64,000 nucleotides of DNA. It comes from Anthoceros angustus (Eukaryota > Plantae > Anthocerotophyta). The notes under the pieces are model-generated. The model was not told the DNA's origin. It ran no database searches and saw nothing but the letters and a program-made list of their open reading frames with translations. The position numbers and the translations under genes are program-made. Shown in pieces: positions 50-32,130 of the stretch (position 1 is the first letter of the stretch; every line of letters starts with the position of its first letter). The stretch lies in NCBI GenBank assembly GCA_010909165.1, contig VJWM01000025.1, positions 2,790,001 through 2,854,000 on the forward strand, in the 5' to 3' direction.

Positions 50-60
50 TGGTATCGAGC
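50..60 (+). other. Primer-binding site, tRNA-iMet type
   Basis: TGGTATC-GAGC immediately after the 5' LTR end; canonical TGGTATCAGAGC lacking one A. Confidence 0.85.
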
Positions 61-2189: not shown

Positions 2190-2830
2190 TGCTTCATCAT
2201 GCATAGCGACATATGTGGCCCCATGTCCACTAGCTCCTTTGGGGGACTATTTCTTGACCTTCATCGACGAGTGGGCGAGATATTGTGTAGTTTTCTTTCT
2301 ACGACACAAGAGTGAAGCTTTTGGTACCTTAAGTCTTATGTTGCTATGCTCAACGCCGAGACTTCCTGTAAGGTGCGAATCTTGCGAACAGACAATGGCG
2401 GTGAGTACACCAATCACGCATTCGCATCCTTACATGCCAAGAAGGAATCCTTCATGGGTTGCTTCCTTACACTCCAGGCGAATGCTTCGGAGCATAAAAG
2501 CAGAACTCTGAGGAAGCCACTTTGGCTTCTCTCTTTGGACTCACCGTGGGTATTGGGCGAAGCTTTGATGGCCGTCAACTATGTACAGAATCGGCTGCCG
2601 ACAAAGGAGCTTGGCACCATGACCCCTTTTGAAAGATGGACGGGCAAGAAGCCCCGAGTTCGACACCTACGAATTTTCGGTGCTCCTGCTTATGCTCTCG
2701 TCCCTCCAGCATTGCGTTCCAAGCTTGATCCCAAGGCATCTCGGCATGTTTTTGTCGGGTACTCAGAGGAGGTGAAGGGCTACAAGTTGTTTAACCCGTC
2801 ACCCGTCAGCTCACTTTATCAAGGAGCGTG
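2190..2830 (+). pseudogene. Copia integrase core plus SH3-like region, frameshifted
   Basis: HSDICGP; YFLTFIDEWARY; LRTDNGGEY; WxEALMAVNYVQNRLPT; LRIFGAPAY; KLDPKASRHVFVGYSEEVKGYKLFNP. Confidence 0.93.
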
Positions 2831-5800
2831 GTTTTCCACGAGGCTGCTCTTCTTCGCCGTCATACTGCTGCTTTGCTTCCGGATGCGACTCCTGTTTCTT
2901 CTTCCATCCATGGCATAGAAGATCTGTTCTTGTTAATCTTGATGAGGTCGTTCTTTGAACGAGGATGCTTCTCCTTCTCGAAATAAGGAACCAATTTCAC
3001 TTCGATTATAATGATGGTGAAGATGAAAAGGCTTGAGACATGATGGACATTTCAACATCTCCACCACCACCGGAGGCCCTTGTGATGATAGTGAACTCTC
3101 GGTATTCCCATGCGGACTCTTAAATCGATTGAGCTGTTGTCACCTCCATCGTAGAGCCCGAATCTGACTCGGTCCCTCCTCCTCGTCGTTCCACTCGCAT
3201 CCGTGACCTATGCAGTGGAAAGAGCCCCTTATTCGCACATATAGTCATGTGGGTGATTTTCTAAACCAAGTGGTCACAAAGAGGCCACATTTACCCTCTT
3301 TATCGTTGTAGACTTGAGATTCGTACCCAAGGGGTGATTTCGTGTCAAGACAACCAAAACATAGCCAATCCAACCAAACACGGACACACCAAAACATCTA
3401 GCGATTCTGAGACCGGCTCTACCTAACAACACGCACTGTGGCTATCTTAGCCACGCGACCTGATGTCACCCCGACACGGCCGGTTGCTAACTTAGCAACA
3501 CCCTCTATTCTAGCGGAGGGTCCACCTTGGGATCAGTCGGCTATTAATAGTGGGTCCGGTCGGGATCCAAGTGGATAAAGCTGATCTCTCCCCCCCCCTC
3601 TCTCTCTCTCTCTTATTCATCCACAAAGTTAGATCCACCAATCAGGATTACTGCTCCCATAACCCTTTTCCCCTCTCCCTTCCCCTCACTCTTGCAGCAT
3701 TTCTTCAGACTTCCTTGCCCCTCGTCCAGCCTTTCAGCTCACCTTCCAGCTCCAGACAGACCCTTCCAGGCTCTCACAGTCCCTTGAGGTGCCTCTCAGC
3801 CCTCCCCACACTCTCAAGTTTCCCCAGCTCTCTTCAACTCCCTTGTTCTCACACCTCCATTCAATCCACTTCCAGCTCTCGGCTCCTCCGTCCTTACAAG
3901 GTTCTCATCCAGACCTTACAGCCCTTCACCAACTCTCAAAATACTTGTTCATCTCTCCCAATCATTCCATCTCATCCACTCACGGATCTTCAACCTCCAC
4001 TCACTCTCTTCTTGACAACACAAACATCACTTACAGACTTCTCCAGTCCTTCTTACTCCTCTCAAACAGCCAATCAGCAACTCTCCATGTCCGGCATTCT
4101 CCACTTCTCACAGTTCACTTTTCCCTCATTTTCCAAACACCAAACCTCCAACACACGAAAACTCAAACACAAGGTGAGTACTAGACAAGCTGAGGGAATG
4201 AGTAAAGGAGGGACAGCCTCCCGGCTTCCACCCCTTCCTCTTGACCTTGAGGACTCCTCCAAGGAGACCTCAAGGCTCCCTTCCTTGCTTTCCACCACTC
4301 TTGCGGATCGGCCACCGCAGGATCCCAACAGTAGTCTTCTCCTGTGCGGAGGCGTGAGCTTCTGACCTTTGGATCTGGAACCCTCCCAAACCCCGTGCTC
4401 ACCCCAAACACCAAGACCTTAAACCAACATTGCTTACATTTCATCAAGAGGGCGCCTCTTATACCCAAGATCGCCCAGCGGCGCTTGCCAAAAATACCAA
4501 TCGGTCTTAGCCTACCAATCCTAGAGGCCTATCTATCAATTACATCCACTATGAGAGAGGATAAGATTTATCTATAACACATGGGCCTTTAGCTATTTGA
4601 GCCACTTACCCTATTACCTCTGGGCCTCCTAGGCCGCCTAGCCCCATGTTCTCCTCTTGCTCTCCTCCCTCTTGGCTGGTTGGGCAATCTCTCCCATAAA
4701 ATCTCTACCTCCTCATGGACTCTCTCTCTCTCTTGTGCTCGCCGCATAGTCAGTACTCCTCCTCGGTGAGCTCTTGAATCTGGATGGGTCGGTGAGAGTT
4801 TCCTCCTTAAGAATCCAACCCATAGGTAGGATCCGGTGCCGTCAAGGCATGGATCAAGTACCTCCATGTCCCCCTGTGCCCACAACAACATAAACTTTCG
4901 GAGACAATCTTCTCTCCGGCCAAGGAGAATCCGGGCACATGGTTATCTTGATAAGCATCCCTCAATCTAATGCACCATTGGGAAGTTAGACTTAGGCGGC
5001 TTACCCGCCTCCGGCCTGCTTGTCCTCCTCCAGTGTCTTGCCCCTTCTTCCTTGTTGTAGCTCTGGTCTTGGAGCTGTTGCTCCCTTAGCAGTGCAGGTG
5101 TTTCCTTAGCGGTGCGGCTTAGCAACCTCCTCTACCTCGGCCGATTCTTCCATGGAGGCTCCGCATCTTCCACGGTGGCTCTCCTTGCAATCCAGCCCTC
5201 TTGGCCTCTTTCCAACCTTTCCTTGCCTCGTCCCTCCGGCATTGCGTTCAAGCTTGATCCCAAGGCATCTCGGCATGTTTTTGTCGGGTACTCGAGGAGG
5301 AGGTGAAGGGCTACAAGTTGTTTAACCCGTCACCGTCGACTCACTTTATCAAGGGCGTGGTTTTCCACGAGGTGCTCTTCTTCGCCGTCATCTGCTGCTT
5401 TGCTTCGGATCGACTCCTGTTCTTCCATCCATGGCATAGAAGATCTGTTCTTGTTAATCTTGATGAGGTCGTTCTTTGAACGAGGATGCTTCTCCTTCTC
5501 GAAATAAGGGAACCAATTTCACTTCGATTATAATGATGGTGAAGATGAAAAGGCTTGAGACATGATGGACATTTCAACATCTCCACCACCACCCTTGTGA
5601 TGATAGTGAACTCTCGGTATTCCCATGCGGACTCTTCGGGTTGAGCTTTGTCACCTCCATCGTAGAGCCCGAATCTGACTCGGTCCCTCCTCCTCGTCGT
5701 TCCACTCGCATCCGTGACCTATGCAGTGGAAAGAGCCCCTTATTCGCACATATAGTCATGTGGGTGATTTTCTAAACCAAGTGGTCACAAAGAGGCCACA

Positions 5801-6230
5801 TTTACCCTCTTTATCGTTGTAGACTTGAGATTCGTACCCAAGGGGTGATTTCGTGTCAAGACAACCAAAACATAGCCAATCCAACCAACACGGACACACC
5901 AAAACATCTAGCGATTCTGAGACCCGGCTACTACCTAACAACACTCGGACACATGGCTATCTTAGCCACGCGACCTGATGTCACCGACAGCGGGCCGGTT
6001 GCTAACTTAGCAACCGCCCTCTATTCTAGCGGAGGGTCCACCTTGGGATCAGTCGGCTATTAATAGGGGTGGGTCCCAGTCGGGATCCAAGTGGATAAAG
6101 GCGATCTCTCTCTCTCTCTCTTACTCATCCACAAAGTTAGATCCACCAATCGGGATTCTGCTCCCATAACCCTTTTCCCTCTCCTCTCACTCTTGCAGCA
6201 TTTCTTGAGACTTCCTTGCCTCGTCCCTCC
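2697..6230 (+). repeat. ~1 kb direct duplication: 2697-3725 is repeated at 5227-6230
   Basis: Near-identical text from ctcgtccctcc(a/g)gcattgcgtt onward; copies differ mostly by small indels. Confidence 0.92.
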
Positions 6231-6242
6231 AAGGAGACCTCA

Positions 6243-9200
6243 AGGCTCCCCTATGGTGCTTTGTGCGTCAGAGGCTGAACCATGAGGGTTTCACGATCCT
6301 TGGTCTTCGCACAACTCTTCTCGGACCTTCCTTAATTCCGCTTCCATGCTACCTAGGCGTCCCTCCAAGACCTCCTTCTCCTGCTTCATTCCGGAGCTCC
6401 TTGGCTCTCCTGTTGTTCCCCTGCTGCGCTGTAAACCTAACAAAGAGGACCGAGCTATGGTCCTCCTCACCTAGTCGTGCCATGCTGAGACCGGCTCTTG
6501 TAGGGTGATGTTAGGCCCCAAACCTTCAGGATGGGTTCCCTCCTTCCTATCTGGCCGCTCTCCCACTCCGGTATATACTTGAGGTCACCCCTTGAGCAGT
6601 AGTGACTTTCTCGGTCATCGGCCGTGCCCAAGGTTGGGCGATTCCTGCTGACTGTTGCTTCCCGGCCACGGGCTCTGAGGCCAGTGCTTTGCTCGGCCTT
6701 TCCTTTATCCTTACATCCGGGTGAGTTCCCAGTCGTGCTCTTGTGGCTCTAGGAGTGGTTGGAGTCCCCTGTTGCTCGGACCTCTCTTGGTGCTGTTGGG
6801 GTCTTAGCAACTCCAGTTGCTTTGTTAGCCGGTGATACCTTAGCGCCACATTCCTCTTCATGGACACTTGGACTTCTCATCTTCACTCCCGGTGCCACGG
6901 AGATGGCCTCTTCCTCGACTCCTCTTTGGGCTTCCTTCTTTCAAACACCGGCCTCCGGGCATGGAAGGTGAGACCATCTCTATCCCCTCCTTGGCATGGT
7001 CAAAATGTGGATTAAGAAGGAGATAGGGCTGAGGTGATGGTAGGGTCAAGTGGTCCCTCTCACATCTTGTGTCATAGAACATCCTAGCCCAATCTATCTT
7101 GGACCCTCTCACCACCTCATAGAAAGACAAGAAATGGTCGACAATGTGCTCTAGCTTCTTAGTGATGAGAGCACAGGATCCACTGGCTAATCCGCCAGCT
7201 CGTGGTCTAACTTGTTGGTGACCCAGCCATTCTCCACCCTAGACAATGTGGGAGCAATGGCGCTTGTGCCTCCTGACTTTTGGGAGATGGCTTCTGAAAG
7301 GATCAATGATTATTCCACCACTTTCCTCTTGCCTCTCATAGACAGCTGGAACAACTGAATATTCCAGTGCGGGGTTGGTTCTCGTGTTGCCTTCCTGGCC
7401 TTCTCCTCATGTGTCTGCACATTCCAGACCAATTAGGCTCTTGTAGCACCACTTTTTGTCCATGAAGGACAAGTGATGCTTAGCCACCAAGGAACCCGCT
7501 TTCACTCTCCAGGCCCCATGTTGGGCCATTGAGCGATGGTAATGGCCTCAATGGATAGGAGTGGTCTTCTTAGTATGGTGTCAGTCTCCTCGGGGCGACT
7601 TCAGAAATTTCCGCTTAGCTCGGCTTTATGCGGAGAATTCCCCACTGGGCTGCTTCCTCGGCCAACTCCACGATGGCAGGGTGTCTGCAGATTCACTCCG
7701 GCACTTTGGGAAGCCTGCGGACCTGAATTTATTGATTCATAGCCACCTTGCCCGTTTTACGTATACGGCCCGGCACCCTAAATTGAACCCATCACGATCA
7801 CATCGATATCACTTTGCCCGCTCAAGCCGATTGCTGCCTTTCCTCCTCAATTGCTCGAGGTCGGGGAAAAGTGTATCCACCAAGTGGTTGAGCGGTGACC
7901 CCTCACAGTGCGCTTCGCCTCCGCCTTAATCCGCGCTCCCCTTGAGGGTGCGTGCCAGTCGCACCCTACCTCGTGCACGCTTCCCCTTCCTTCTGCAACT
8001 CTTCTCGGACCTTCCTTAATTCCGCTTCCATGCTACCTAGGCGTCCCTCAAGACCTCCTTCTCCCTCATGTGTCCTGCACATTCCTCTTGCTCTCCTCCC
8101 TCTTGGCTGGTTGGGCCGATTCCTCCTGTTGGGATTTCTGATCGCGTCCCGGCTGTTGCTCCCCTGCTTCCGCCACCCCTGAGCTCCTCCACAGTCTTCT
8201 TGCCCCTTCTTCCTTGTTGTAGCTCTGGTCTTGGAGCTGTTGCTCCCTTAGCAGTGCGAGTTATTGCTTCCTTAGCGGCTTGCTTGCTTGTAACCTCCTC
8301 GGTGCCAACTCGGCCAGATTCTTCCATGGGAGGCTCGCATCTTCCACGGTGGCTCTCCTTGCAATCCGGCCCTCTTGGCCTCTTTCCAACCTTTCCTTGC
8401 CTCGTCCCTCTCCTTCTTGTAGCGCCCGTATCCAGCAGTTTCGGCTGCGCATCGAGATGACATTGCGGCTCCCCTATGGTGCTTTGTGCGTCAGGAGTGA
8501 ACCATGAGGGTTTCACGATCCTTGGTCTTCCGCAACTCTTCTCGGACCTTCCTTAATTCCGCTTCCATGCTACCTAGGCGTCCCTCAAGACCTCCTTCTC
8601 CTGCTTCATTCCCGGAGCTCCTTGCTCCCTGTTGTTCCCCTATGCGCTGTAAACCTAACAAAGAGGACGAGCTATCGGTCCTCCATCTCACCTAGTCGTG
8701 CCATGCGAGACCAGCTCTTGTAGGGTGATGTTAGGCCCCAAACCTTGGGGATGGGTTCCCTCCTTCCTATCTGGCGCGACTCTCCCTGCGACCACTTGGG
8801 GTATACTTGAGGGTCACCTTTGAGCAGTAGTGACTTTCTCGGGGTCGGCTCGGTGCCCAAGGTTGGGCGATTCCTCCTGTTGACTGTGGCTTCCCGGCCC
8901 ACGGGCTCCTGAGGCTGGTCTTTGCTCCTTTGTCTGTACATCCGGGTGAGTTCCCAGTCGTGCTCTTGTGGCTCTAGGAGTGGTTGGAGTCCCCATTGCT
9001 CGGACCTCTCTTGGTGCTGTTGGGGTCTTAGCAACTCCGGTTGCTTTGTTGTTGTGGTGATGCCTTAGCGCCACATTCCTCTTCATGGACACTTGGACTT
9101 CTCATCTTCACTCCCGGTGCCACGGAGATGGCCTCTTCCTCGACTCCTCTTTGGGCTTCCTTCTTTCAAACACCGGCCTCCGGGCATGGAAGGTCGAGAC

Positions 9201-9504
9201 CATCTCTATCCCCTCCGAACTTGGCATGGTCAAAATGTGGATTAAGAAGGAGATAGGGCTGAGGGCTGGGTGATGGTAGGGTCAAGTGGTCCCTCTCCAC
9301 TGCATCTTGTGTCATAGAACATCCTAGCCCAATCTATCTTGGACCCTCTCACCACCTCATAGAAAGACAAGAAATGGTCGACAATGTGCTCTAGCTTCTT
9401 AGTGAGCTGAGAGCAGGATCCACTGGCTAATCCGGCCCATTTCGAGGTCTAACTTGTTGGTGACCCAGCCATTCTCCACCCTAGACAATGTGGGAGCAAT
9501 GGCG
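6243..9504 (+). repeat. ~1 kb direct duplication: 6243-7262 is repeated at 8466-9504
   Basis: Both copies run from ggctcccctatggtgc to gggagcaatggcg. Confidence 0.92.
6250..7520 (-). pseudogene. Frameshifted accessory ORF of the insert (globular segment plus charged coiled-coil tail); second copy at ~8470-9500
   Basis: KLEHIVDHFLSFYEVVRGSKIDWARMFYD followed by E/K/R-rich helical sequence (LRKVREELRKTK). No gag/pol motifs. Confidence 0.45.
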
Positions 9505-10916
9505 ACAGCCTCCTGCTCGGTTTCGATCCGCGCATCCGCCGGACTTGCCATTCCACCCGATTCGGCCCCTCTTGATCGCAGCTCGCCAGCCCTTGCCGCC
9601 GTGACTCCGCTGCCCGGCGCGCCGCTTGTGGCCCCTCAGGCCTTTCGGGCTGCTCGCTCGCGGCGTCCAATGGGCTCAATGTAGATTTTTCTTGTTTATA
9701 AGCCTTCATTCCTCCCTTGGATTCTACTTGGCAAACACAAAACAAAAAAACACTTACTCTCCTCCTTTAGGTTTACCCTTGGTCTTCCAACTCCACGATG
9801 GCAAGGGTGTCCTGCCTAGATTCACTCCAGCACTTTGGGAAGCCGTCACGGACCACAATTTATTGATTCAGCCCTATCTTCCCAACGTTTTACGTGTCGG
9901 CTTGACACCCGGCACCCTAAATTGAAACCCTGTCACGATCCTTTGTACAGTAGCACTTTGCCCGCTCAAGCGATCACGCCTTTCCTCCTCAATTATGCGA
10001 GGTCCGGAAAAGTGTATCACCTGCAGTGGTTGAGCGGTGACCCCTCACAGTGCGCCTCCGCCTTAATCCGCGGCTCCCTTAGGTGCGTGCCCAAGTCGCA
10101 CCCTACCTCGTGCACGCTTCCCCTTCCTTGCGGCAATTCTCGGCCCCTCACTTACGCTGCCTACTCTTCTCGATCCCTTTACAGTACGGCCAGCGCGCGC
10201 CTTGACCTTCTCCAGCTACGGCCCGATTATTCCACTCCGCCAGGCGATGATTTCTGATCGCGTCCCGGCTGTTGCTCCCCGATTGCTTCCGCCACGCCGC
10301 CCTGAGCTCCTCCACGATCTTCGTTCGCCGCCTCGGCCCCTCCTCACGCCGTAGCCTTGGATCTGCTCGCCATCTCGGCTGGCCTCCCTCGGTTTCGATC
10401 CGCCGCGCAGCCGGACTTGCCATTCCACCCGATTCGGCCCCTCCAGTCGCTCGTCGCTGACCGTTGCTCTGACGCGCCATTTCCTCCGTCCGGTCACGCT
10501 CAGGAGCTTGAGGTGTGGCGCCGCCTTGATCCTTTGCAAGTATTCCTTGTCCTTCACGCGTGGAAATCGTTAATAGGACCCCGTTACTTCCCGTTGGGTA
10601 TTTCCAATGATTTATCAATTAGGTTTTCAGTTATCGGAAAATAATTCCAACAGTTGCTACCATAGCAGCGGGCTCGTCGGTTCATCATAGCAGTCCACAC
10701 TAGCGGTCCCATCCGCGTTAACAACCGGCCGAGCACCAACCCTCAAGAGATTACATCCGGGGTCGACTTAGACTCTCCTCCTCCTACTAGGCTCTAGTAG
10801 ACTTTTCTTATTTCCTAACCTACTTCACATTCCAACTCCACACGATTCTCACAACTTAAACACAAAACAAAAAAACACTCCTTTTTGAAATTGCAGTACC
10901 CATGTGGTCACCACAA

Positions 10917-12606
10917 GTCACTTCCGAATTCTCTTACGCAGCGATTCGATGTTTGACTTCCTTGGTGAGCCTTTAACTTATCTGAAGCCTTAGCAGGCCC
11001 TGAGGCCTCTTTTTGGCAAGCTGCCATAGATTCAGAGTATAAGTCCCTCATCCAAAATAAGACATGGAAGCTTGTCGATCTCCTCACAGTGAAAACCGGT
11101 TCAATGTAAGTGGGTTTTCAAGAAAAGTTGAACAACATGGAGTGCATTGGAAGATACAAGGCCCGTCTAGTGGCCAAGGGCTATAGCCAAATCCGAGCTT
11201 GACTACAATGAAACATTTGCTCACATTGTCAAGTCCACCTCTGTTATCCTTGTGGCGATTCATCACAATCTCCTCGTGCATCAATGGATGTCAAAAGCGG
11301 CTACAGATAGCTTCTTGGAGGAAGACATCTATATGGTTCAGCCTGAAGGTTTTATCATTGACACCGACAAGGTTTGCAAGCTCCTCAAAACTCTTTATGG
11401 ACTCAAGCAGGCTTCACGAGCCTGGTATGAAGTGTTTCACAAACTTTTGATGGAGCTCGGCTTCACTTGCCTCAATGCAGACACCAGTGTATATATTTTA
11501 CGGGATGGAGCCGACTTTCTGATCCTTACAGTTTATGTCGATGACAATTTCCTTTTTAGCAATTCTGCTACTCTTATGGCTCATCAAACTGATCCTGCTT
11601 TCTAAGTTTGACATGACTGACCTTGGGGAACTTACCTTCTCCCTTGGTGTCCAGTTTCATCTCAATCCTACTGCTGGAACTATTGACATACATCAGGATC
11701 ACTTTGTTCATCAACTCCTCCAGCGTTTTAATATGCTTGATGCAAAACCAGTGTCCACTCCCATGGCACTTGGTGAGAAGCTTTCTGTTGAGCAATGTCC
11801 CACTACCGATGAGGAGAAGAAGCTCATGGCCAACATTCCTTATCGACAAGCTGTTGGCTCCTTAATTTACCTTTCTGGATGGACACGGTTGGACATTACT
11901 CGTGCGATGGGGCGTGGAGTCGATTTTAGAGAACCTGGTCCCCTCATCGATCGCGATTAACGTATCTTCGATACTTGAAAGGCACTCCCGACTTGGCTTG
12001 CGTTTTGAAGTCCACAACCGGTTTAGCTCTTTCAGCTTATTGCGATGCGGATTGGGCGGGGATCCGACACTCGGCAGTTGTTGCCTATTGCACTTTCATG
12101 GCACTTGATTGTTTCACAGTCGCAAAGTTATCCACCATATGTCTTTCCTCGTGGCGGTATGCGACCATGACTCAAGCTTCCAAGGAAATAATATGGATAC
12201 GCTGATTTCTCAAAGGACTTCAACAACTTCATCGATCCCACTCCATTATTATGTGACAACCAATCACCATCGCACTCTCAAGAAATCACATGTTCCATGC
12301 AAGGTCCAAGCATATCGAAATTAGCCATCACTTTATTCGTCAAGCAGAATCGGGAGAGGTAGGTCGTATGTTCCTCTGCGGACAATGTTTCGACCTTCTC
12401 ACTAAGGCCTTGTCAAAACCATTACATGAAAAACATACGCCGCATTTGCGAGATCCTCATTGCTACTAAGGGCACCGCCATTAGCCTGGTTTGCTTTTCT
12501 AATCCCCGATTGGGAGTTTCTTTGTGTTTTTGAGTGTCTTCACAGTCTTCTCGCCTTATCGGCCTTGGCAAACTCCTCCGTCAAGCTACAAACCCACGGA
12601 TGATCG
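10917..12606 (+). pseudogene. Copia RT-RNase H, copy 1 (frameshifted)
   Basis: EYKSLIQNKTWKLVDL; YKARLVAKGYSQ; FLEEDIYMVQPEGF; KLLKTLYGLKQASRAWY; VYVDD; YRQAVGSLIYL; AYCDADWAG. Confidence 0.95.
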
Positions 12607-14237
12607 GTCACTTCCGAATCTTGCATTCTCGTTTGACTTCCTTGGTGAGCCTTTAACCTCTGAAGCCTTAGCAGGCCACGAGGCCTCTTTGGCAAGTCGC
12701 CATAGATTCGAGTATAAGTCCCTCATCCAAAATAAGACATGGAAGCTTGTCGATCTCCCGGTCGAAAACCGGTTCAATGTAAGTGGGTTTTCAAGAAAAG
12801 TTGAACGATGGGTCTTTGGAAGATACAAGGCCCGTCTAGTGGCCAAGGGCTATAGCCAAATCCTGTGGCTTGACTACAATGAAACATTTGCTCACATTGT
12901 CAAGTCCACCTCTCGTATCCTTACGGCAGTTCATCACAATCTCCTCGTGCATCAATCGGATGTCAAAATTTTCTCGAATGGCTTCTTGGAGGAAGACATC
13001 TATATGGTTGACTGAAGGTTTTATCATTGACACCACAAGGTTTGCAAGCTCCTCAAAACTCTTTATGGACTCAAGCGAGCTTCACGAGCACGGTATGAAG
13101 TGTTTCACAACTTTTGATGGAGCTCGGCTTCACTGCCTCAATGCGAGACACGGTGTATATATTTTATGGGATGGAGCCGACTTTCGATCTCGGTTTATGT
13201 CGATGACAATTTCCTTTTTAGCAATTACTCTTATGGCTCGCATCAAGCGATCCCGCTTTCTAAGTTTGACATGACCTTGGGGAACTTACCTTCTCCTTGG
13301 TGTCGGTTTCATCTCAATCCTACTGGAACTATTGACATACATCGGGATCACTTTGTTCATCAACTCCTCCAGTTTTAATATGCTTGATGCAAAACCGATG
13401 TCCACTCCCATGGCACTTGGTGAGAAGCTTCTGCTGAGCAATGTCCCACTACCGATGAGGAGAAGAAGCTCATGGCCAACATTCCTTATCGACAAGTTGG
13501 CTCCTTAATTTACCTTCTCGGATGGACACGGTTGGACATTACTCGCGATGGAGCCGTGGAGTCGCTTTTAGAGAACCTGGTCCCCTCATCGATCGCGTAA
13601 ACGTATCTTCGATACTTGAAAGGCACTCCCGACTTGGCTTGCGTCAAGTCCACAACCGGTTTAGCTCTTTGACTTATTGCGATTGGGCGGGGATCGACAC
13701 TGACGCAGTTGTTGTTGCCTATTGCACTTTCATGGCACTTGTTTGGTGCGGCGAAGAAGTTATCCACCATATGTCTTTCCTCGACAGAAGCCGAGTATGC
13801 AGCCATGACTCAAGCTTCCAAGGAAATAATATGGATACGCAGTTTTCTCAAAGGACTTCAACAACTTCAGTCCGATCCCACTCCATTATTATGTGACAAC
13901 CAATCAGCCATCGCACTCTCTGTGTTCCATGCAAGGTCCAAGCATATCGAAATTAGCCATCACTTTATTCGTCAAGCAGAATCGGGAGAGGTAGGTCGTA
14001 TGTTCCTCTGCGGACAATGTTTCGACCTTCTCACTAAGGCCTTGTCAAAACCATTACATGAAAAACATACGCCGCATTTGCGAGATCCTCATTGCTACTA
14101 AGGGCACCGCCATTAGCCTGGTTTGCCTTTCTAATCCCCGATTGGGAGTTTCTTTGTGTTTTTGAGTGTCTTCACAGTCTTCTCGCCTTATCGGCCTTGG
14201 CAAACTCCTCCGTCAAGCTACAAACCCAGGATGATCG
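12607..14237 (+). pseudogene. Copia RT-RNase H, copy 2 (tandem duplicate)
   Basis: Same motifs as copy 1, plus LSSTEAEYAAM, CDNQSAIAL and HARSKHIEISHHFIR. Confidence 0.95.
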
Positions 14238-14238
14238 G

Positions 14239-14922
14239 TCACTTCCTTGTAAACAACAGACTCTCAACATAACTTACAAGTCGGTTTACTTCAGTATATG
14301 ACCCACACAGTTCTGTCATATGTGGCTCAGGTTTCTTCACTTCCTCTTTTCCTGTTTTCTTCACGCCCTTAGCAGACTTAGCAGGCTTGTGCCCCCACTC
14401 TTTCTCCATGTAGACCTCGTCATCAGAATCCACTGGAAGAGGGATTTCCATGTAAGCCTGCATCTCTTCGGGAGTAGGCCTCAGGGCCACCCCTACTATG
14501 CCTCCTTTTTCCTTGTGTTCAGTCTCTTTGCAGGCCATCTTGTGAAATTCAGTTGAAGGCGCAGCGTACACTCTTCGAGGGACGCCCTTGTCGTCGAAGT
14601 TTTGGAGTCTTCTTGCCGTTTTCGCCTTCGAAGTATCAGCTGGAACAGGACCGCAACTTGGAGACTCGAAGGAGACTATGTTAGAGTCAGGACAATGCAT
14701 TGCATGAAGACAAGACTGCCTTTCAGAGAATTTCCTGACTGGAATCCAGACTCTCTCACAGCCCAGGCACTTCAGGCCTTGTGTTACGTCGTCCATTGTC
14801 GACCACACAAGACGCTGATGGGCACACCTGCTTGGAGATGAAGATATCCAGGCGCAAAGGATTGCGAGGGAGAAGACTGTGATCACAAGAGACATGAGCT
14901 CAATGGCACTCAAGGATGCCAT
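14239..14922 (-). CDS. Antisense 227-aa ORF inside the Copia 3' region (hydrophobic N-terminus, CxxC)
   Basis: Uninterrupted ATG-started ORF lying between RNase H and the PPT/3' LTR. Confidence 0.5.
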   Translation of the reverse strand: MASLSAIELMSLVITVFSLAILCAWISSSPSRCAHQRLVWSTMDDVTQGLKCLGCERVWIPVRKFSERQSCLHAMHCPDSNIVSFESPSCGPVPADTSKAKTARRLQNFDDKGVPRRVYAAPSTEFHKMACKETEHKEKGGIVGVALRPTPEEMQAYMEIPLPVDSDDEVYMEKEWGHKPAKSAKGVKKTGKEEVKKPEPHMTELCGSYTEVNRLVSYVESLLFTRK

Positions 14923-14959
14923 AGCTCTAGTTATAGCGGGCGTTGGGGAGTAATTGGCA

Positions 14960-14984
14960 AGGTGAAGTGAAGCGGGAGTGAGAG
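14960..14984 (+). other. Polypurine tract of the Copia element
   Basis: Purine-rich aggtgaagtgaagcgggagtgagag immediately before TG. Confidence 0.6.
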
Positions 14985-15346
14985 TGTCACGTTTGGCATG
15001 TTACTGTGCACCCATCATTTGTACTTTGTCACAGCTAGCACCACAGGACGAATTTAACAGGCTTTAATTTCCCTTTTCAGACTGAAACATGCTTCAACTA
15101 AGTGGGAGTATTAGAAATAGCCTAAAAGCGTTATGTTACAACTATGAACCGCTAAAGTAGTTTTGCATTTTCAGTTCCGACGGTTAAATAACCGTTCGCC
15201 TTTTTTGTATAAGATAGTTTCTTTCCATTAATCAATCAACCTTTTTTCCTCACATACGCTTTGCTTCTCGTGTTCTCCGCTTGTGCTCTTGGTCACTTTG
15301 GCTCTCTCATGTTGATCCTGCCATAGCTATTCTCTTAGCTTTTACA
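14985..15346 (+). repeat. Copia 3' LTR (TG...CA)
   Basis: Ends tagcttttaCA and matches nt 1-49. The start is inferred from the PPT and could be 14979. Confidence 0.8.
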
Positions 15347-15559
15347 GACTGCTGATGGAGACGATGGCGCAAAAGCTTCTGGAGATGCCATGTTTCAGCC
15401 TACAAAACATGGGGCTAAGCGCGAAGGAAGTCAGGGGTTTGACTCGGCGGATATTAACAACCTTTGAAGACTAAGCAAGTGTCCAAGATGTACCACAACA
15501 GGTAGCAATGATGTCATTGCTGACCTCGGAGCCAAGCATCTCTCCGGAGAAGCGGAATG

Positions 15560-15891
15560 CTGCACGAGTCAAACCCGGAGCATAGCCAGTGATAGTTGGA
15601 AGAAGAGTGAAGGAAGCGTTGCGTCTCCACAAAGAAAGGTTGAAAGAAACCAAGTGGAAGATTCAGACCGCAGCCGTGACCATAGAACATGTATTATGGG
15701 TGACGAGGTACAAGTTGAAGGTTTCATTCAAACCAAGAACATCTAACTTCACCTTTGTTGAGGTACACTACTTGGTCACTAATGCAGACACATTCGATGT
15801 CTTGCTGGGAGCGGACACTTTGTATAAACCTGGATTGATGGTGGATTTGTGGATAGAGACAATCTTCGATCGACCAGGCTGGAGAAGCTAG
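15560..15891 (+). pseudogene. Gypsy aspartic protease (degenerate active site)
   Basis: KPGA*PVIVGRR (decayed D-T-G-A-Q-P), FDVLLGAD and RPGW. Confidence 0.7.
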
Positions 15892-16289
15892 AGCAAAACC
15901 GATGAACTAATTGCTCGCATCCCTCTGCAGCCGCATGGCGAAGATCATGAGAACCTCATTGCCAGTAGCATCTACCCAGTGTTTGGGGCTGTGGTGACGG
16001 ACATGCCTTACCTGCTTGAACCTCTTGGCATATGTCTAACAACCGCAACTGACCTAAGGGAGGATTTCGACGAGGAGGAGAAAGACAAGCTACTAGGGTC
16101 ACAACCACCCTCAGAGGAGGTTCTTCAAGTCAGCCGGACAGAGCTGGTGACTACAACAATGAGTCGTGCAAAAGCGGTAGAAGATGGTTGAAGAGGATTA
16201 GTGTCCTATGAGCCGGAGAACTGCTGTAAGTTCTTACCTACGGTTGAGCTTGTTTGTGACCTAAACACCCAGGTGATCACATGGCGACC

Positions 16290-17360
16290 TCGCGAAGACG
16301 GCATAGTGCTGGTGGAAGTCTCTGGAGGCATCAGTAAAGGCTTGGAAGCAGTGCTAAAATGTGGCATCAAAGTACGAAGATACGTGCAGTGTGACCGAGA
16401 TCCAAAAGCAAGGATTGTGTTACAGAAGTGCGTTAGAGACTTTATGGGGGAGTACCCTAACCTCCTAATGTGGGAGTTAGTGAAGGATTACAAGAAGGCG
16501 CTCCCAAAGGATGTTCGCATGATAGGGTTGTTCCATGTGAGCTGTCTTGGGCAACCAATGGACCAAGGCTTGTAATTGTTGGTTGAGAATGTCAAGGACT
16601 ATCCTCTGCAGGTAAGGGTCAAGGTCTGAAGAATCCACGAACAACATTGTACTATGACCTGATGAGGATCTTGCGCTTTATCCAGAAAGGGCAAGAAAGG
16701 CCTTGTGGATACATGTTAGAGAATGTGCCAGCATGCATGAGCGCAGGAGCGCATGAATGTGCCAGCATGCATGAGCGCATGAATGTGCCAGCATGCATGA
16801 GCGCATGAATGTGCCAGCATGCATGAGCGCATGAATGTGCCGGCATGCATGAGCGCAGCATGCATGGATGCATGCAGTAGCAAGTCCAGGAGGATTTTGC
16901 CACGATCCAAGGAGTGTTGGGTCAGGAGCTACTGTTGGATGTAGCTCAATTTGGTTCGAGGGCACATAGGTTGAGGTCCATGTGGACTAACCTTGTTGCC
17001 TTGGAACATTTGAAGTGTGCGAGGTCGTTCACCAAGTGACCTGCTCATGTCGTCAAAGATGTGCTAGCATCAGGAAGGCATGCTCAACAAGTCATCAAGA
17101 CTGACAAGCTGCTGCACTTCCCTGTGAATACGCCTGGACACCCCACGGCGGTTTGACCAACCTTTGTGTCCAAGTTCTACGTCTTCAGGAACCATGGCCC
17201 TGGCGTTGTGGTGGACAGACATGGCGAGGCCTAACAGCCACACAGAGGGAGTTGGCTATGGGATTTGCTGACGAAGACACCGGAAGTGATCGAGAAGGAA
17301 CGGTGTTGATTGCTTGGGCAAACATTTGACATGAACATGATGACCTGGTTGTTCAGCGCT
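16290..17360 (+). pseudogene. Retrotransposon-encoded DNMT3-like C5 cytosine methyltransferase (inactivated copy)
   Basis: Motif I LVEVSGGISKG (16309-16341); IV LVIVG*ECQGLSSAG (Cys at 16590-92); VI ENVP (16719); VII/VIII LDVAQFGSRAHRLRSMWTNL (16935-16994); IX RELAMGF (17246); X LLGQTFDMN (17310). Confidence 0.9.
16719..16878 (+). repeat. 26-bp minisatellite (~5 copies, gaatgtgccagcatgcatgagcgcat) inside the DNMT
   Basis: Directly visible tandem units with no unique spacers. Confidence 0.95.
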
Positions 17361-17559
17361 AGAATCACTTACCAACTTCGAAATTAGAAGAAGGCGGGGT
17401 TGAAGCAGTTGGTTCGGTGAGCAAAAGACATTCTAGCACTTGCATCTCAACAAGAGCAGGCGAGTTTGGAGGGCAAGGAGAGTGAGCGAATCAAGAAAGC
17501 GTGCAAGCCATTCGAGCCACAACCACATGAGTGGTTGACAGCCGTCGAGTTGAAGAGCA

Positions 17560-17715
17560 ATCAACGACGTCAACAAAAGGAGTTGTTGGAGGCATCGCTA
17601 CATGTGTTTGCTTTCATACTTGCGGAGATGGGGAAGTACACCAAGGGGAAGCTCCACATAGAACTTACCACGGATGAACCGGTGTTCCGCAGGAGGCACA
17701 AGCTTGACAAGACAA
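17560..17715 (+). pseudogene. N-terminal fragment of Gypsy reverse transcriptase
   Basis: LLEASLHVFAFILAEMGKYTKGKLHIELTTDEPVFRRRHKL is typical of the Gypsy RT-preceding segment; it ends abruptly. Confidence 0.7.
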
Positions 17716-17729
17716 GAAGAAAACGGCAA

Positions 17730-17872
17730 GCAACCGGTGGGGAGTAGTCCAGATGACATGTTGGCCATGCGCAGGAGGATGTTGAAGACAACCCTCGACT
17801 TATGGACAAGGTTTATAACTTTTGGACGACATTCCCGAAGAAGATTGGTTTTGTGCACAATGCACTACATAA
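17730..17872 (+). pseudogene. Degenerate PHD finger at the polyprotein C-terminus
   Basis: PDDML, then CAGGC*R...LDDIPEEDWFCAQCTT* (17822-17872). Confidence 0.75.
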
Positions 17873-17931
17873 GGTGCGTACGTGTGTAGTACTACTAATG
17901 ATAATGTTTTGACTTAGAATCTCACATTATT

Positions 17932-17940
17932 GGGGGGAGA
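17932..17940 (+). other. Polypurine tract of the Gypsy element, with putative LTR starting at 17943
   Basis: GGGGGGAGA followed by tt-TGTTTG, 60 nt after the PHD stop. Confidence 0.6.
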
Positions 17941-18611
17941 TTTGTTTGCACCTATATTTGCATATTTGATTTGTTTTCTTGGTTGTTTGTTGAGGAAGTG
18001 CTCATATGAATGCAAGTACTTACCTTGTGCGACAACTGTCATGCCGTGTGACACTAATCTCTACACTTGGGTTTAGTGTTTGATTGGTATTAATTAATCT
18101 AATTACTTATCTTTAAGTAAATAATTAGTATTAACTAATCTAACATGCTTTATGTTAATTAATCATTGATTAGTGTTAATTAAGCATGGGTAGCGATAGC
18201 TAAGTGGATAAGCACAAGTAATATGCTTTAGCATATTCCTTGCATATTATAGTGTATTCTTAAGATATTTCCGGCATACGCTGATGTCAATAGGATATCT
18301 TAGGAATATGCCGATGCCAAGGGCTAGTATATATAGACCCTTTCACAGATGACAAGCTCAGATCATAGCTTGTTCTCTAGATACGCAGTGCAATAGTGTT
18401 GTGAGGAGGCCAAAGCTATGACTCTGAGAGCGATGTGAGAGGAATTTTCATGTTGTTCTCGTGGCGAAAGTGTGTTTGTGCCATGACTTGCAAGCTCTCT
18501 CCTATTCTTATTGGTTTGCACCTATATTTGCATATTTGATTTGTTTGCTTGGTTATCTGTTGAGGAAGTGCGACAAATGCTATAATAGCACTGTACTCAA
18601 TAATTGAGTGC

Positions 18612-18828
18612 AGTCCTCCAAGAGCTATAGCCAAGTTCAAGTCACTACAAAAAAAACTCCAGAGCTTAAACTCCAACAACACAAAACTAGTCATGTCTTG
18701 CTTGACTACGAGTTGGATATAGACAAATGCTCTTCTTGTAGGGATTTTACAATAACCTTATACAAATTGCTAGCATGAGAGCCGCAAGTAGAACATGCAA
18801 TTCCAAGCTAGTAGCTCCACTAGGGGGG
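18612..18828 (-). pseudogene. Diverged copy of the GDPDL 3' end (last codons plus 3' UTR)
   Basis: Aligns by eye to 26952-27169 (gagctatagccaag...ttccaagctagtagctccact). Confidence 0.85.
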
Positions 18829-23979: not shown

Positions 23980-24663
23980 TCAAGGCACGTAATCCTCATC
24001 TTCCTCATCGAACTCACTAAAATCGATGTCATCCAGTCGGCCAGATCCCTGCCGGTTGTTCACTTTGCCGAGGTATCCTGTGCCCTTGAAGTTCCTGAGC
24101 TCCAGCGGCCCCAGCTGCGCCTGAGACTCGCTGACGGTGATCTGGAACGAAATCTTGCTCTTCCCCGGCGGGATCTCGGAGATGGTGTCGATGCGCAGAC
24201 TCTCTGCAGCGTCCAGAGCGGGCTCGCCTTGCGCGTCGTACACTCGGCCGAAGATGTCCACATTGTACACAGGCTGCTTCACGGGGTTGAGAGCGTCCCC
24301 TGTGATCCGGAAACACGTAGCTCCGAACGAGGTGCCTCCTGTCACAGTGGTCTGGCCTTCGGGGCACGGCACCGGAGTTGCCTTGATGCCGGACAGAACA
24401 ATTTTGACATCCGCCAGCGCTGAGCCGCAGCCGCTCAGACCCGCGGCTGCTGCTGCCAGCAGAAGCAGTGTCCGCCTCTGGACATGAGCCGACGAGCGGG
24501 CCACCGACGAGGATGATGATGCGGCTTCCGCCTCGGAGATGGCTCGGATGGGTAACAGCGAAGGGGCTCTCCGTTGCAGCACGCACCCTGAGGTGAAAGA
24601 TGATGAAGGCATACGCATTCCCGCTCGGGCTGAGCAGCAGGCCGTGGCTGGGAAGGAAGCCAT
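23980..24663 (-). CDS. Putative thylakoid lumen protein (Tat signal) resembling a conserved cyanobacterial hypothetical protein
   Basis: Transit peptide, RR motif, hydrophobic stretch and ALA cleavage site; mature part CFRITGDALN...VDIFGRVYDA...IDTISEIPPG...LRNFKGTG. Confidence 0.75.
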   Translation of the reverse strand: MASFPATACCSARAGMRMPSSSFTSGCVLQRRAPSLLPIRAISEAEAASSSSSVARSSAHVQRRTLLLLAAAAAGLSGCGSALADVKIVLSGIKATPVPCPEGQTTVTGGTSFGATCFRITGDALNPVKQPVYNVDIFGRVYDAQGEPALDAAESLRIDTISEIPPGKSKISFQITVSESQAQLGPLELRNFKGTGYLGKVNNRQGSGRLDDIDFSEFDEEDEDYVP

Positions 24664-26874: not shown

Positions 26875-27087
26875 TATCATGAACGATTTGGGGGACGATG
26901 AACGATTTTGGGGATAAAGTTACTCGATGGGCTGTAGAGTGCCACTAGTAAAGTCCAGCACGAGCTATAGCCAAGCTCAAGTCACAGCAGAAAAAACTCT
27001 AGAGCTGAGACCTCAAACAACGCAAAAACAGGCCTGTGCTGCTTGGGTACCAGCTGGGTCTAGACATCAACGGCTCTTGCAGGGCTT

Positions 27088-30000
27088 TTACAACAAACTT
27101 GCACAAACTGCTAGCATGAGAGCCGCAAGCAGAACCGGCAGTTCCAAGCTAGTAGCTCCACTGGGGGGAGCTGCCGGAGGATGAAGCACAGGGGCTGCAG
27201 GAGATGGTGGTGGTGGTAGCAGGGTGGCATTAGAAGGCAAGGGGGCTAATGGGATAGGAGGTTCAGACACATCTAAGAGAGGCAAGGGTGGGGAGGCAGG
27301 TACTGGTGCGTTCGTGAAACTTAGCAAGAAGCGGAAGAGCTGTCCAGGAATGACAGGCTGGATTGTGTAGTTTTGTACAGATGATTGCAAGCTTCCCTGC
27401 ACAGGGGCATAGCAACTTTGACCTGCAAGTCCGAGTGTTGGTGCGAGTGAGTTTGCTGTGAGTGCCATACTGAAAAATCGTTTAGAAGAACTGAAATAAG
27501 CCAAGGTTAGTGGTGACTTACGCAAGAAGGCAGCCACTGTTGCTGGATAATCCGAGATGAAGCCGCTCACATTGTAGTTCTGTGTCAAGGTGTTGAGCTC
27601 TCGTGCGGGATCTGACTCATAGTCGAAAGCGAACACAACAGGTTCATTCCTCTGAACGGCCAAGTAAACTGTGAGATTTTGTTGCAGAGCATCATGGACA
27701 ATACTAGTCTGATCTACCAGAAAGTTCTGGTAAAGTGGGTCCAAAGGCTCCACCAACTGGCTCTTGGGCACAGTTACTGCACTTGCAAAGCTCTTGATCT
27801 GCTGCAAAGCTGACACTGTTACAGTCTCCGCAAGCACTGGGTCGGTTGAGGCCACTTCGATCCTGTAAACTCGATCGTAGGAGGGAAGAACCTGCTGTAG
27901 CCTCTTCAGGGCAGAGCTGTCCTCAGACTGCAAAAGAACTGGCTGGCTGGAGTTGCTACCATCAAACCCTGCCTGCTTCAGGGCAGCCACAACTGTGTCG
28001 ACGGCATTCAGACCAGCCTCAGTTGCAAGGAAGTAGGCATTCTGGAGGAAAACAGAACCCCTGCGGTTAGCTCCTGGTTATGGAATAAGCCAATAGTCTT
28101 TGCAGAATTTACATGAAGTGCTACCTGGATATCAATAAAGATTCCTGTGCTTGAGTGATTCTTAGCGAGCTCCAGGAACGTCGATAGCTGTAGGACCCCT
28201 TCAAGTCCATCATAAGCCGGATTCCTCAACAGAAAATGCACCGGGTTACTTTGTTTCACTGCAGAATTTGTAAAGTCCATGATCAGGGTGGATGAATCAC
28301 GAGAGCACGAGACCATCACAATGACACGCACCGAGCTGAGAAAAGCTGTAACAGAAGCCCATCACCAACATCAATGCAAGATCAGCATCGGATCTCACCC
28401 TTCAGCTGACTGATTTCGCTCCATGTGAGATTGAACGTGAACACACATTGGTCACAGTGCAAGGCATCTATACTACTGGACCTGGAAAACAGGTCAATGT
28501 ACTTGCTCACATCGGTGTTGGCAACAAGGTCGGGTGATTCGTGACATATAGCCACACCATCCTTAGTAAGCTGCACTGGACAGTCGATGTAATCCGCTCC
28601 ATCTCTTACAGCAGCCTCATAAGACAACACAGTGCATCCAGGATAATCCCCACTGGCTCCGTTATGAGATATAATGGTTCGCTTAACAGCCGAGGGGCTC
28701 AGTGGAGTTTGCCCTGCAGCATCCATGGTAACTCAGAGTGAGAAGGAAGCCTAGACCCACCGACCACAAGAAGGTGAGAAACACGAACTCTCTGCTTACC
28801 TATTTGCAAAGCGCCGGATGAACCACTGGATGCATAGCAAGCTGCCATTACGGACAAGCAGCGAGGCTCACTGTCAGGAGGGGGTCTGTAAGAAGCCGCA
28901 GTCCAATACAGGAAGACAGAATCTTGAGAAGGGTACTTAACAGCAAAGAAGAGATGAATTTCTCACATATTGCCTCAGACGCAGTCGTAGGAAAATCTGT
29001 AAGGAGACCGTCGGGAGCAAAGTCGCCATTGGCTACAAAGTTCACGTACTCCCTGAGAGGGTCGTAACTGTAGTTGTAGCTGGAGCGGGGCTCATCATTT
29101 GCAAAGACACCGGCGTAAACGGTCAGATTCGCCTTGTGGAAGTCCGCTACAATGGTAGTGGGTGCCTTCAAGTACAGAGTCTGGTCATCCACCGGCCATA
29201 TTGCATCCTTGGGGACAAGCACTCCTGAAGAGAAGCTGGCAATCTCTTCTACAGTGAAGCTGGAATACTTCCTGTTGGTTGATGGCTCCACTGCATCCAG
29301 GGACGGGATCTTGAAAACAAGCTTCGTTCCACCTCGACGGGCAATGCTCCCCAGGCTCTTGAGCAACGCCACCTCCGTTGCTGAAAAGTAGGCTGGCAGG
29401 AGAGTATTGAGTGCGGTTTCCGCGTACGTGGTCATATTATACCCGTTCTGCTCGTAGAACAAAGCATACTGTGGCAAGCACAGAGGTCAGTTCCCAGGCA
29501 GTGTGGAGAGAAACCCACAACCCGAATCCCAGCTCACTGCTGATCCTTACCTCCACGTTGAGCCATAAGTATGCTGGATTCTGAGTTGTTGCTGAGTAGC
29601 CAGACAGTATCTGGAAGACATCTGACGGAGTCAGGATGGAAAAGAGACTATCGAACGCATAGGGTCGCGCCTGGTTGCCCTGTCTAGCTGCGTCCCAGGG
29701 ACATCCAGACACACGACATCAGGAAACCACTGCAGTGGGAGGAAGAAGGGGACTATGTGGCGAGATGTGATGGGCACTCACCGCCAGCTGTGGCATTGAG
29801 GTCCGCGTAGGTGAGATCGATGGAGAAGGTTCCAGTCACATTTACCCCGTTCACCTCCCGCGTTGTGGTGTTGAAGGGAGGCAAGGTGGTGCTATTCCGG
29901 AGATCAAGGCCAGTCCGGCAGATTCCCAACGAGTCTTTGGTGAGCTGCACATCGCAGAACAGAGCGATGCCCGGCACGGAATCCGAAAGCGCGAAAGAGT

Positions 30001-30266: not shown

Positions 30267-31389
30267 GGCTGCTGCCCTCCGCATTGCGGCTCCAGCCGTA
30301 GCTCCAGCAGCTGTGTAACGATGCTGCGGAGGCGTGGTCAAGCGGAGGTGTTGATCTGGACGTGGGTCCGACTCCGACTCCGACTCCGACTCCGAGCTCC
30401 AGCTATCTGCTGGTGCAGCGCGGACTGGGACATCTGCTGCCGGCACCGTCTTCGATGCCGCGAGCAGTGCGAGTGGAGGCCAGCTGGGAGCGCGGGCGGA
30501 GGCGGCCGTGATGACGGCTCTCTCAGGTGCCGGGGGCAGCCGGGGGATACGGACAAGGAGCGGGCGATGGATGTCGTGAAGGTAAAGCGCGCAAAGGGCA
30601 ACGCCCTTCTTGATTTGCGGAGCAACTGACAGGGTGCCTACGAGATCGGTCCCCGGGAATGTAGACGTGGCCAACCGCGTTGAATCCTGGAGCCTGCTGC
30701 TGCAGGCCAAACAAGGACTGCTGCACCAAGTGCCGCCTGGCCTGCCACGGCCCACACTCTCTACGTATGTACATACTACGACAAATACTCTACTCCTCTT
30801 CACCGTCTGCAGTACTGCGCATGTGGAGCCCGGGAATCCGAGCCCCGTGCTTTTGTGCGGGAGGGAAAACAAAATCATTCAAATCTCCTGTCGCCCGGCT
30901 TCCTTTCCGCAGCTGCCGGCTGGCGCCACCCACAAGTGAGCATCAACAATGCACGCCTCTGGAACCTGGAACAGGGTGCCATTTTGGCCCCGTCCCGCCT
31001 CCCAGCCTCCCAGCCTCCCAGCCTCCCAGCCTCCCGGCCTCGCTCCCGGTTCCTGGAGACCGGTGGTTCACAGGATTGCCGGCCCGATTCCGGTCCTCCC
31101 GTTTTCACGTTTTCGCAGGGGCCGCCAGTCCCATACACGTTCGCTCCCAAATATGAATCCCAGCCGGGAACAGGGAATAGATAATTATATCTATATAATT
31201 ATCTACAAAAGTCCTATTTCTTACACAAAAGATCTATAAATAATTCTTGTAAAGTTGAAGTGGGATCTGACTATGGGTTCAAATCCCACTTTTGACATCT
31301 ATAGTAGAGAAGGAAGAGTGCTGGACGTCCATGTTCTATATTATATTCATTTACAATGGAATATTTTATGTTATATTCATTTACAATGA

Positions 31390-32130
31390 ACTATTTTATG
31401 TTATATTCATTTTATAATGTACCATTATAAAACCCCATCGTATTATACTAATTTTAGAATGACCCGTTGTAAAACCCCATCGTATTATACTAATTATTAT
31501 ACTAATTTTAGAATGAGCCGTTGTAAAACCCCATCGTAGATTTCAAATGAGCTATTGTAAAACCCCGTGTAGATGTACAATATGCCGTTGTAAAACCCCG
31601 TCGTACATTTCGAATGAGCCGTTGGAAAACGCTGGGTAGATGTACAATGAGCCGTTGTAAAACCCAATCGTTTTATACCCGTCATAGATTTACAACGAGC
31701 CGTTATGAAACCCCTTCGTAGATCTAGAATTAGCCGTTGTGATTTACAATGAGCCGTTATAAGACTCCTTCGTAGATTTGGAATGAGCCGTTGTAAAATC
31801 CGTCATTTTACTCTTATATTAGATTTAGCCGTTTTGTTCAAAACCCCGTCGTTTTATACTAATTTTAGAATGAGTCGTTGTAGAATCCCGTTATAGATTT
31901 ACAATGAGCCGTTGTAAAATAGTGTCATAGATTTACAAAGAACCATTGTAAAACCCTATCGTAGACTTGTAACTTGACTCTAAGTGTTAGGGCAAGAGGG
32001 TTTATTTGAATTTATGTTGATTTTATAACCATTGTAAAACCTCGACGTTTTATATTAATTTTAGAATGAGCCAACGTAAAACCCATCATAGATTTACAAT
32101 GAGTCGATATAAAACCTTGTCATAGACGGG
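31390..32130 (+). repeat. Degenerate ~33-34 bp tandem array
   Basis: Consensus tagatttacaatgagccgttgtaaaaccccgtcg recurs many times. Confidence 0.85.

Follow-up and report, generated by a model that had tools for sequence, protein, structure and literature searches.

The window analysed here, a stretch of 64,000 nt from contig VJWM01000025.1 of Anthoceros angustus, contains compact genes at about 48% GC; the published Anthoceros angustus genome is given as 49.6% GC. Positions 1-15344 are occupied by a Ty1/Copia retrotransposon whose LTR ends agree at all 49 visible bases, followed at the left by a primer site that we take to be of the tRNA-Met type; gag, SH3 and RVT_2 domains lie between position 49 and the 3' LTR. 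The RT region of this element is duplicated internally (~11200-12600 and 12870-14220), and a nested GC-rich repeat block (~3500-10600) and an antisense ORF of 253 amino acids (14239-15000) were also observed. Directly behind the Copia 3' LTR the remains of a second element become visible (Table 1). We consider it very probable that the sequence from 15345 to 18575 represents a dead Ty3/Gypsy retrotransposon that has suffered an internal deletion, carrying a DNMT3-type cytosine methyltransferase in pol, between protease and reverse transcriptase (RT); this degree of confidence applies to the identity of the element alone and does not extend to the mechanistic steps proposed below.

Next to the right end of the element lies a decayed piece (18612-18827) matching at 80% the 3' part of a host GDPD-like gene 8 kb further on (26952-27168); VPS36 and then a formyltransferase gene follow. 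A single-exon gene on the minus strand (23983-24663) encodes a likely plastid-targeted polypeptide of 227 amino acids that belongs to no Pfam family. It is conserved at 62-82% in mosses, lycophytes, ferns and an alga. Of its 15 matches, those with names are from Ceratodon, from Selaginella moellendorffii (64%) and from two ferns, besides two algal-type gene models, presumably Spirogloea from the format of their names, which rank 12th and 13th; the best 11 include moss, lycophyte and fern proteins. Trees of this gene placed it best beside Ceratodon, with the position unstarred, and an AU test rejected a grouping with ferns (p 0.005) but not with Spirogloea (p 0.156) or Selaginella (p 0.09). An ULTRAPETALA1-type gene with SAND domain, zinc finger and a long charged N-terminus is located at 41167-42804; in the sources available to us this family is reported from land plants only, with its range given as either euphyllophytes or angiosperms. 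Judged from these neighbouring genes, the host is probably a seed-free land plant, hornwort- or lycophyte-like, and a streptophyte alga such as a zygnematophyte is improbable: the Spirogloea result and the algal names among relatives of the element would fit an alga, and compact DNA of this GC content is not diagnostic, but the ULTRAPETALA1-type gene, the low rank of the algal-type matches and the place beside Ceratodon speak for a land plant. The assignment of 39500-41000 as FRIGIDA-like had been a guess and was dropped, as no Pfam match was found there. Two long intronless ORFs on the minus strand (56450-57811 and 59364-61151) encode RING-like fingers, one being AT-rich with three fingers and the other GC-rich, and are unlike their intron-rich neighbours. 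AT-rich tandem arrays with units of 33-34 nt, 490 nt (two copies) and 95 nt (31340-32120 and 34637-37010) separate blocks of genes.

Table 1. Features of the element and of the Copia LTR preceding it, in window positions.
Feature	Position	Strand	Remarks
3' LTR of an unrelated Ty1/Copia element (context)	15109..15344	+	Severs the 5' part of the methyltransferase element; 15296-15344 100% identical to window 1-49
Decayed stretch before the protease; visible element start	15345..15573	+	tblastn of P0209 (protease and DNMT) aligns from 15397
Ty3/Gypsy aspartic protease, dead	15574..15894	+	Catalytic D-S/T-G lost, stops; profile of 10 relatives, E 1.1e-24
Methyltransferase motifs I-III	16303..16560	+	Family profile 1-85, E 7e-20; frameshift at end, near 16560
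Motif I	16309-16341	+	Phe replaced
Motifs IV to VI	16563..16751	+	PF00145, E 1.1e-7; family profile 85-147, E 2.6e-20
Motif IV	16581-16604	+	Codon of the catalytic Cys (16590-16592) intact; Trp position taken by a stop
Motif VI (ENV)	16719-16727	+
Tandem repeat inside the domain, 26 nt x 4.4	16743..16857	+	TRF; ~43 codons missing from relatives (gap in 5 other alignment rows)
Motifs VII-X and target-recognition region	16845..17360	+	Family profile 135-316, E 2.3e-40; four further in-frame stops
Motif VIII	16938-16994	+
Motif IX	17237-17266	+	Other frame
Motif X	17301-17336	+
Linker and N-terminal RT stub	17454..17714	+	Profile E 1.2e-15
PHD finger, C-terminal half, remnant	17822..17875	+	Weak alone; local E 1.6e-4, no Pfam match
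Polypurine tract (G-run)	17932..17939	+	Directly 5' of repeat B
Repeat B, copy 1	17940..18034	+	17940-18001 vs 18510-18571, 93.5%; terminal 7-mer shared by both copies
Inner B/A junction; likely integrase site	18028..18043	+	Palindromic CA-nn-TG; 7-mer of the right end, then, 2 nt on, that of the left end
Repeat A, inner copy	18037..18509	+	TATA box 18328; between two B copies as in relatives
Repeat B, copy 2; right end of element	18510..18575	+	Host DNA after

The methyltransferase domain and its type

The C5-methyltransferase domain at 16303-17360 is whole and colinear, with motifs I-X in order. The preliminary description had placed motifs I, IV, VI, VIII, IX and X in this order between a Gypsy protease and the start of RT, with the catalytic Cys retained; all of them were located (16309-17336), including the Cys codon. 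It had also proposed a search with PF00145 after frame repair, and a match was obtained even without repair: ORF 16587-16805, alone among the 12 ORFs scanned, scored above the cut-off (32 bits vs 22). A family profile of 320 positions, built from 59 relatives with the window left out, aligned to the domain in three colinear parts (Table 1), and its sole other match in the six frames of the window had an E-value of 0.84. The motifs had been thought mostly split across frames. There is a frameshift near 16560, and motif IX lies in another frame (17210-17287; family profile 264-289, E 0.06), but motifs IV-X are mostly in one frame.

The domain has lost the Phe of motif I and contains five in-frame stops, one of them replacing the Trp that precedes the catalytic Cys, three frame changes and a tandem insert. 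No open frame with an intact SAM motif and the Cys-Glu-Arg set was found in it; the Cys, the ENV and the RxR are kept. Taking the element as a whole, decay comprises the five stops, frameshifts, the tandem insert, a deletion of about 2.6 kb and the Copia insertion that severed the 5' part. The stops, tandem insert and deletion appear unlike the error pattern of long-read indels. The view that this is a Gypsy element encoding a DNMT3-like enzyme is supported for domain, domain order and family type, the window copy itself being dead and only a fossil.

Searched against PDB, the family profile matched DNMT3A best (E 4e-24), then DNMT3B (8e-22), DRM-type enzymes (2e-13) and M.HhaI (2e-9), and DNMT1 was absent from its 54 matches. 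A structure model of the relative P0026 (pLDDT 95.5) matched DNMT3A/B/C in all 35 matches listed (best E 3e-20). When the window piece was used alone, bacterial enzymes ranked first, weakly (E 0.004 vs 0.11). By profile and predicted fold, the comparisons support a DNMT3-type family, to which DRM, DNMT1, DNMT2 and bacterial enzymes are less similar than DNMT3A/B; this agrees with the Dnmt3-type assignment made from the motifs before.

A DNMT3-type catalytic domain is also found in plant host DNMT3 and DRM, and the domain could be a pseudogene of one of these, or a one-off capture, among retrotransposon debris. The copy is indeed fragmented and sits in a nest of elements, and the trees of relatives comprise element copies, without host DNMT3 or DRM sequences. 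Plant host DNMT3 proteins such as PpDNMT3a/b, however, carry a C-terminal DUF3444 (Yaari et al. 2019, PMC6453930), whereas the window domain has no such tail. It is also intronless, while several exons are described for the host gene of Klebsormidium; DRM has a rearranged motif order, unlike the colinear, unrearranged domain in the window. A protease before the domain and an RT stub after it, at the spacing of the family, and hundreds of relatives inside pol also argue against a host origin of this kind. We therefore regard a host pseudogene or isolated capture as extremely improbable, and as largely refuted already.

Remains of the Gypsy element around the domain

Integrase, RT core, Gag and the 5' repeat cannot be seen within the window, so that the class of the element and its end structure rest in part on relatives. 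The Ty3/Gypsy order protease-RT-RNase H-integrase, with RVT_1-type RT and DDE integrase, is present in relatives (for example, P0188), and the window keeps the protease and the RT stub. Recognition of both depended on profiles of relatives, as the protease gave only E 0.18 with Pfam gag-asp_proteas and Pfam found no RT match in the stub. The element can be seen only from 15345, directly behind the Copia LTR, so Gag and the 5' end are assigned to DNA beyond the window. After the RT stub about 2.6 kb comprising RT core, RNase H and integrase are gone, leaving ~170 nt from RT to PHD finger vs a median of 2772 nt in 32 loci. An extent of 16290-17360 before RT had been given initially; RT does start after the domain, but only its start is present, and the element runs on to 18575.

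The 3' part resembles that of relatives in layout. Over the whole window the PHD remnant was the best match with one profile (E 0.002) and the third with another (E 0.15). From the PHD Trp codon to the end of the G-run there are 92 nt in the window vs 85-99 nt in 19 loci, and among the seven direct-repeat pairs spaced 350-700 nt in the window only this one is preceded by a G-run. The inner junction scored 19.1 bits with a weight matrix (shuffles: mean 13.0, maximum 20.0; an unrelated site at 49311: 20.7). No second copy of repeat A was found in the window, its 5' partner being expected upstream. Repeats 17940-18575 might alternatively stem from a different element whose LTR took the place of the original 3' part, with the PHD likeness arising by chance. 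The weak PHD score would fit such a replacement, as would the lack of a long DNA match between the window repeats and those of relatives, and TG behind a G-rich tract is a common sight ahead of Copia LTRs. Since the PHD-to-G-run distance, the B-A-B layout and the junction and right-end 7-mers nevertheless all match relatives, we think a foreign LTR improbable and assign the repeats to the methyltransferase element.

Relatives, split repeats and a candidate replication cycle

A full HMMER scan returned 462 relatives at E <=0.001. RT, RNase H or integrase domains were present in 27 of 28 long relatives scanned. Among 164 domain-bearing proteins, 78 had the order RT-RNase H-DNMT-integrase(-PHD), 18 had protease-DNMT-RT like the window, and 68 were too short. 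The first order, with the named example Scenedesmus, characterizes a larger Gypsy group (P0023-P0168; for example, P0033, Scenedesmus KAF8056149.1) with a DNMT3-type domain between RNase H and integrase and a C-terminal PHD finger; the available text of de Mendoza et al. 2018 (PMC5890265) does not list chlorophytes among the hosts. Named relatives sharing the order of the window are all algal: Closterium GJP34393, CAI5973665, CAI7886383 and Mesostigma. The two orders separated in an RT tree (33 vs 10 rows, support 99), and a FastTree analysis of DNMT placed the window on the side of the protease-DNMT-RT elements (support 97). In a second tree the window sat on a long branch, its placement unstarred, and its identity to the other rows did not exceed 38%.

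In metagenomes, scanning by motif found 116 loci, several being sightings of an insertion already present in another record: 63 had DNMT followed by RT/RNase H, five the other order, six protease only and 42 were too short. The viral-contig locus L001, a single weak case, was dropped, as it had no match to DNMT probes. Most loci were decayed copies in AT-rich DNA (35-44% GC), and comparison of the window element with 117 loci gave no DNA-level match at E 1e-4. Word-index protein searches yielded 2 and 16 matches, none named as a land plant, and 30 cluster look-ups of relatives returned names limited to Scenedesmus, Closterium and Mesostigma. Among 43 scanned flanking ORFs beside relatives (68 found), four were of host type, encoding PPR-DYW, FAE1, MYB-CC and reticulon proteins, which fit a land-plant host for these relatives and support the suggested occurrence of the family in land plants. 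Taken together, the Gypsy-DNMT3 type, in two domain orders, spans chlorophytes (Scenedesmus), Mesostigma, Closterium and land-plant DNA. The findings that would have counted against the preliminary description, no PF00145 match, or a domain that groups with a host DRM/DNMT3 gene and is never found with protease and RT in other copies, were not obtained, as far as they could be tested, since PF00145 did match and co-occurrence with protease, RT, RNase H and integrase was seen in relatives.

The expectation that intact copies would have paired LTRs was not borne out. Full-length relatives instead read A-pol-PHD-polypurine tract-B-A-B; nine of 32 loci were full length, seven of them distinct, and 23 were not. 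A G-run follows the PHD finger in 26 of 29 related loci, and a second B was found in 13 of 29 with none seen in 16. Where the matches to inner A and last B were adjacent, the two repeats abut (5/5 loci: L017, L025, L038, L040, L063). In all seven distinct full-length relatives the first seven bases form a TG 7-mer and the last seven a CA 7-mer; at the inner B/A junction these two 7-mers recur, separated by 2 nt. A 4-nt target duplication was exact in four of the seven, had one mismatch in two and was absent in one. Behind the 5' A, 12 nt are antisense to a site in A, with at most one mismatch in five of seven relatives, and this site lies 32 nt after the TATA box in the six relatives where a box was found. 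Such A-pol-B-A-B ends are why finders of paired LTRs would overlook these elements.

The target duplications, the palindromic CA-nn-TG inner junction and the self-priming signature of relatives suggest that the family probably integrates from a two-LTR circle, an unusual route proposed from sequence; the junction is present in the window as well. Transcription would probably start in the 5' A about 32 nt past the TATA box, and the 5' end of the RNA would pair just behind A and prime its own reverse transcription. Plus-strand synthesis from the polypurine tract would then yield cDNA in linear form, [B A]-pol-[B A], with ends lacking TG...CA. Somewhat less securely, though still with fair likelihood, these ends would be joined and the DDE integrase would cut the CA-nn-TG palindrome at B/A, producing A-pol-B-A-B and a 4-bp duplication. 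The methyltransferase, freed by the protease and packaged with RT, might methylate CG/CH sites of the cDNA so that the new copy is premarked, a step for which we see the case as evenly balanced. Lastly, the PHD finger may read histone tails and direct insertion, which is the most tentative of these steps. Parallels exist for parts of this cycle: Tf1/sushi Ty3 elements self-prime from the RNA 5' end, as proposed here, foamy-virus integrase cleaves a two-LTR circle at the palindrome of the joined ends, and Chlamydomonas REM1 is an algal Gypsy element with a PHD finger. Termini of this kind may already be on record for REM1 or in curated libraries of Chlamydomonas. The end structure offers a testable route by which a DDE integrase would insert from a circle.

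Role of the methyltransferase and comparison with known systems

Whether the family methyltransferase marks its own cDNA is, judged from sequence, a balanced question. Of 105 full domains of relatives, 92 retain motif IV with the catalytic Cys and 93 retain motif VIII. Ka/Ks, a rough measure here with copies decayed and deaminated, was 0.34 for DNMT (21 copies) vs 0.36 for RT (9 copies), and 0.10 for the pair L058/L043; values <0.2 are published for KnitGypsy-Dnmt3 (PMC5890265). CpG depletion was considered as a sign of self-methylation and not seen: observed/expected CpG in the element was 0.61 vs 0.62-0.84 in neighbouring gene regions, indicating no extra CpG loss.

The domain may instead be kept for binding nucleic acid or for damping the element's own activity, or the host methylome may be its main target. 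The CpG values are in line with this, and the Klebsormidium KnitGypsy-Dnmt3 enzyme gave no methylation signal in yeast, a result that its authors call inconclusive; models of host benefit are among those listed in the accessible text (de Mendoza et al. 2018, PMC5890265). Against it, the catalytic and motif VIII residues have been widely conserved, related DIRS-borne Dnmt3 domains are reported to methylate CG in yeast (PMC5890265), and a place in Pol would put the domain in the particle together with the cDNA. On balance we lean away from these other roles, though they retain appreciable plausibility, and cDNA marking is kept as the working proposal.

Published DNMT retrotransposons come from dinoflagellates, a single charophyte and a small number of further algae. 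The openly accessible articles searched did not report the elements from land plants or describe these termini, and 'KnitGypsy' occurred in one paper only. The available text of hornwort, Sphagnum and liverwort genome papers makes no mention of such elements; later papers cite the class for 'streptophytes', with land plants not named in the parts accessible, though their trees and supplements may include land-plant members. The set of de Mendoza et al. 2018 is given as including 10 DNMT genes of Selaginella and nine of Physcomitrella (PMC5890265). Should the elements have a long history in land plants, early members of that group had de novo methyltransferases borne by TEs alongside host DNMT3 and DRM, and such TE-borne DNMTs can inflate DNMT counts in gene models. 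A broader scenario, which we offer with reserve and regard as rather unlikely in full, is a self-priming Ty3 clade spread across the green lineage that integrates from a two-LTR circle, opened by the DDE integrase at the inner CA-nn-TG palindrome, and brings its own DNMT3 to methylate this circle. Land plants would have inherited the clade and would still harbour it in two or more distantly related lineages, one moss-like and one represented by the compact, GC-rich, hornwort- or lycophyte-like DNA of the window; it would amount to a mobile de novo methyltransferase.

That retrotransposons carry DNMTs had been described before, as the preliminary description stated for charophytes and dinoflagellates; the published elements include KnitGypsy-Dnmt3 and, from Symbiodinium, SymbioDIRS-Dnmt3 and SymbioLINE-Dnmt (PMC5890265). 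SymbioDIRS-Dnmt3 resembles the window family in its split repeats and a Dnmt3 domain in Pol, and the DIRS type is reported to methylate CG in yeast. DIRS elements, however, use a tyrosine recombinase and make no target duplication, whereas the window family has an rve/H2C2 DDE integrase and 4-bp duplications; a DIRS identity was rejected, as no recombinase was found in 28 and five long relatives scanned and a 4-bp duplication was present in six of seven. EpiLTRs of Cymbomonas and Euglena (Fernandez-Moreno et al., bioRxiv 10.64898/2026.05.21.726589) likewise combine a DNMT and a chromatin-reader domain in an LTR element, but their DNMT is described as sister to DNMT4 and accompanied by DAM and a chromodomain.

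The closest likeness is to KnitGypsy-Dnmt3 of Klebsormidium nitens, described as having an unrearranged, intronless Dnmt3-type domain in a Gypsy Pol (de Mendoza et al. 2018, PMC5890265) and, according to the figure legends, DIRS-like repeats (A-coding-B-A-B) with Gypsy domains. A Dnmt3 domain inside a Gypsy Pol, which defines KnitGypsy-Dnmt3-like elements, was found in the window and in relatives, and the split repeats are shared by the window as the 3' B-A-B half and by the seven distinct relatives as the full A-pol-B-A-B. The accessible KnitGypsy-Dnmt3 text is silent on the order of the domains, on a PHD finger or 4-bp duplications, and on an inner junction or self-priming, and no named Klebsormidium sequence appeared among the matches. 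The comparison is one of a dead copy with a published description, and the host differs, Klebsormidium being a charophyte. We conclude that the window element is a real, dead member of the class published in 2018 as KnitGypsy-Dnmt3, probably in a new host lineage.
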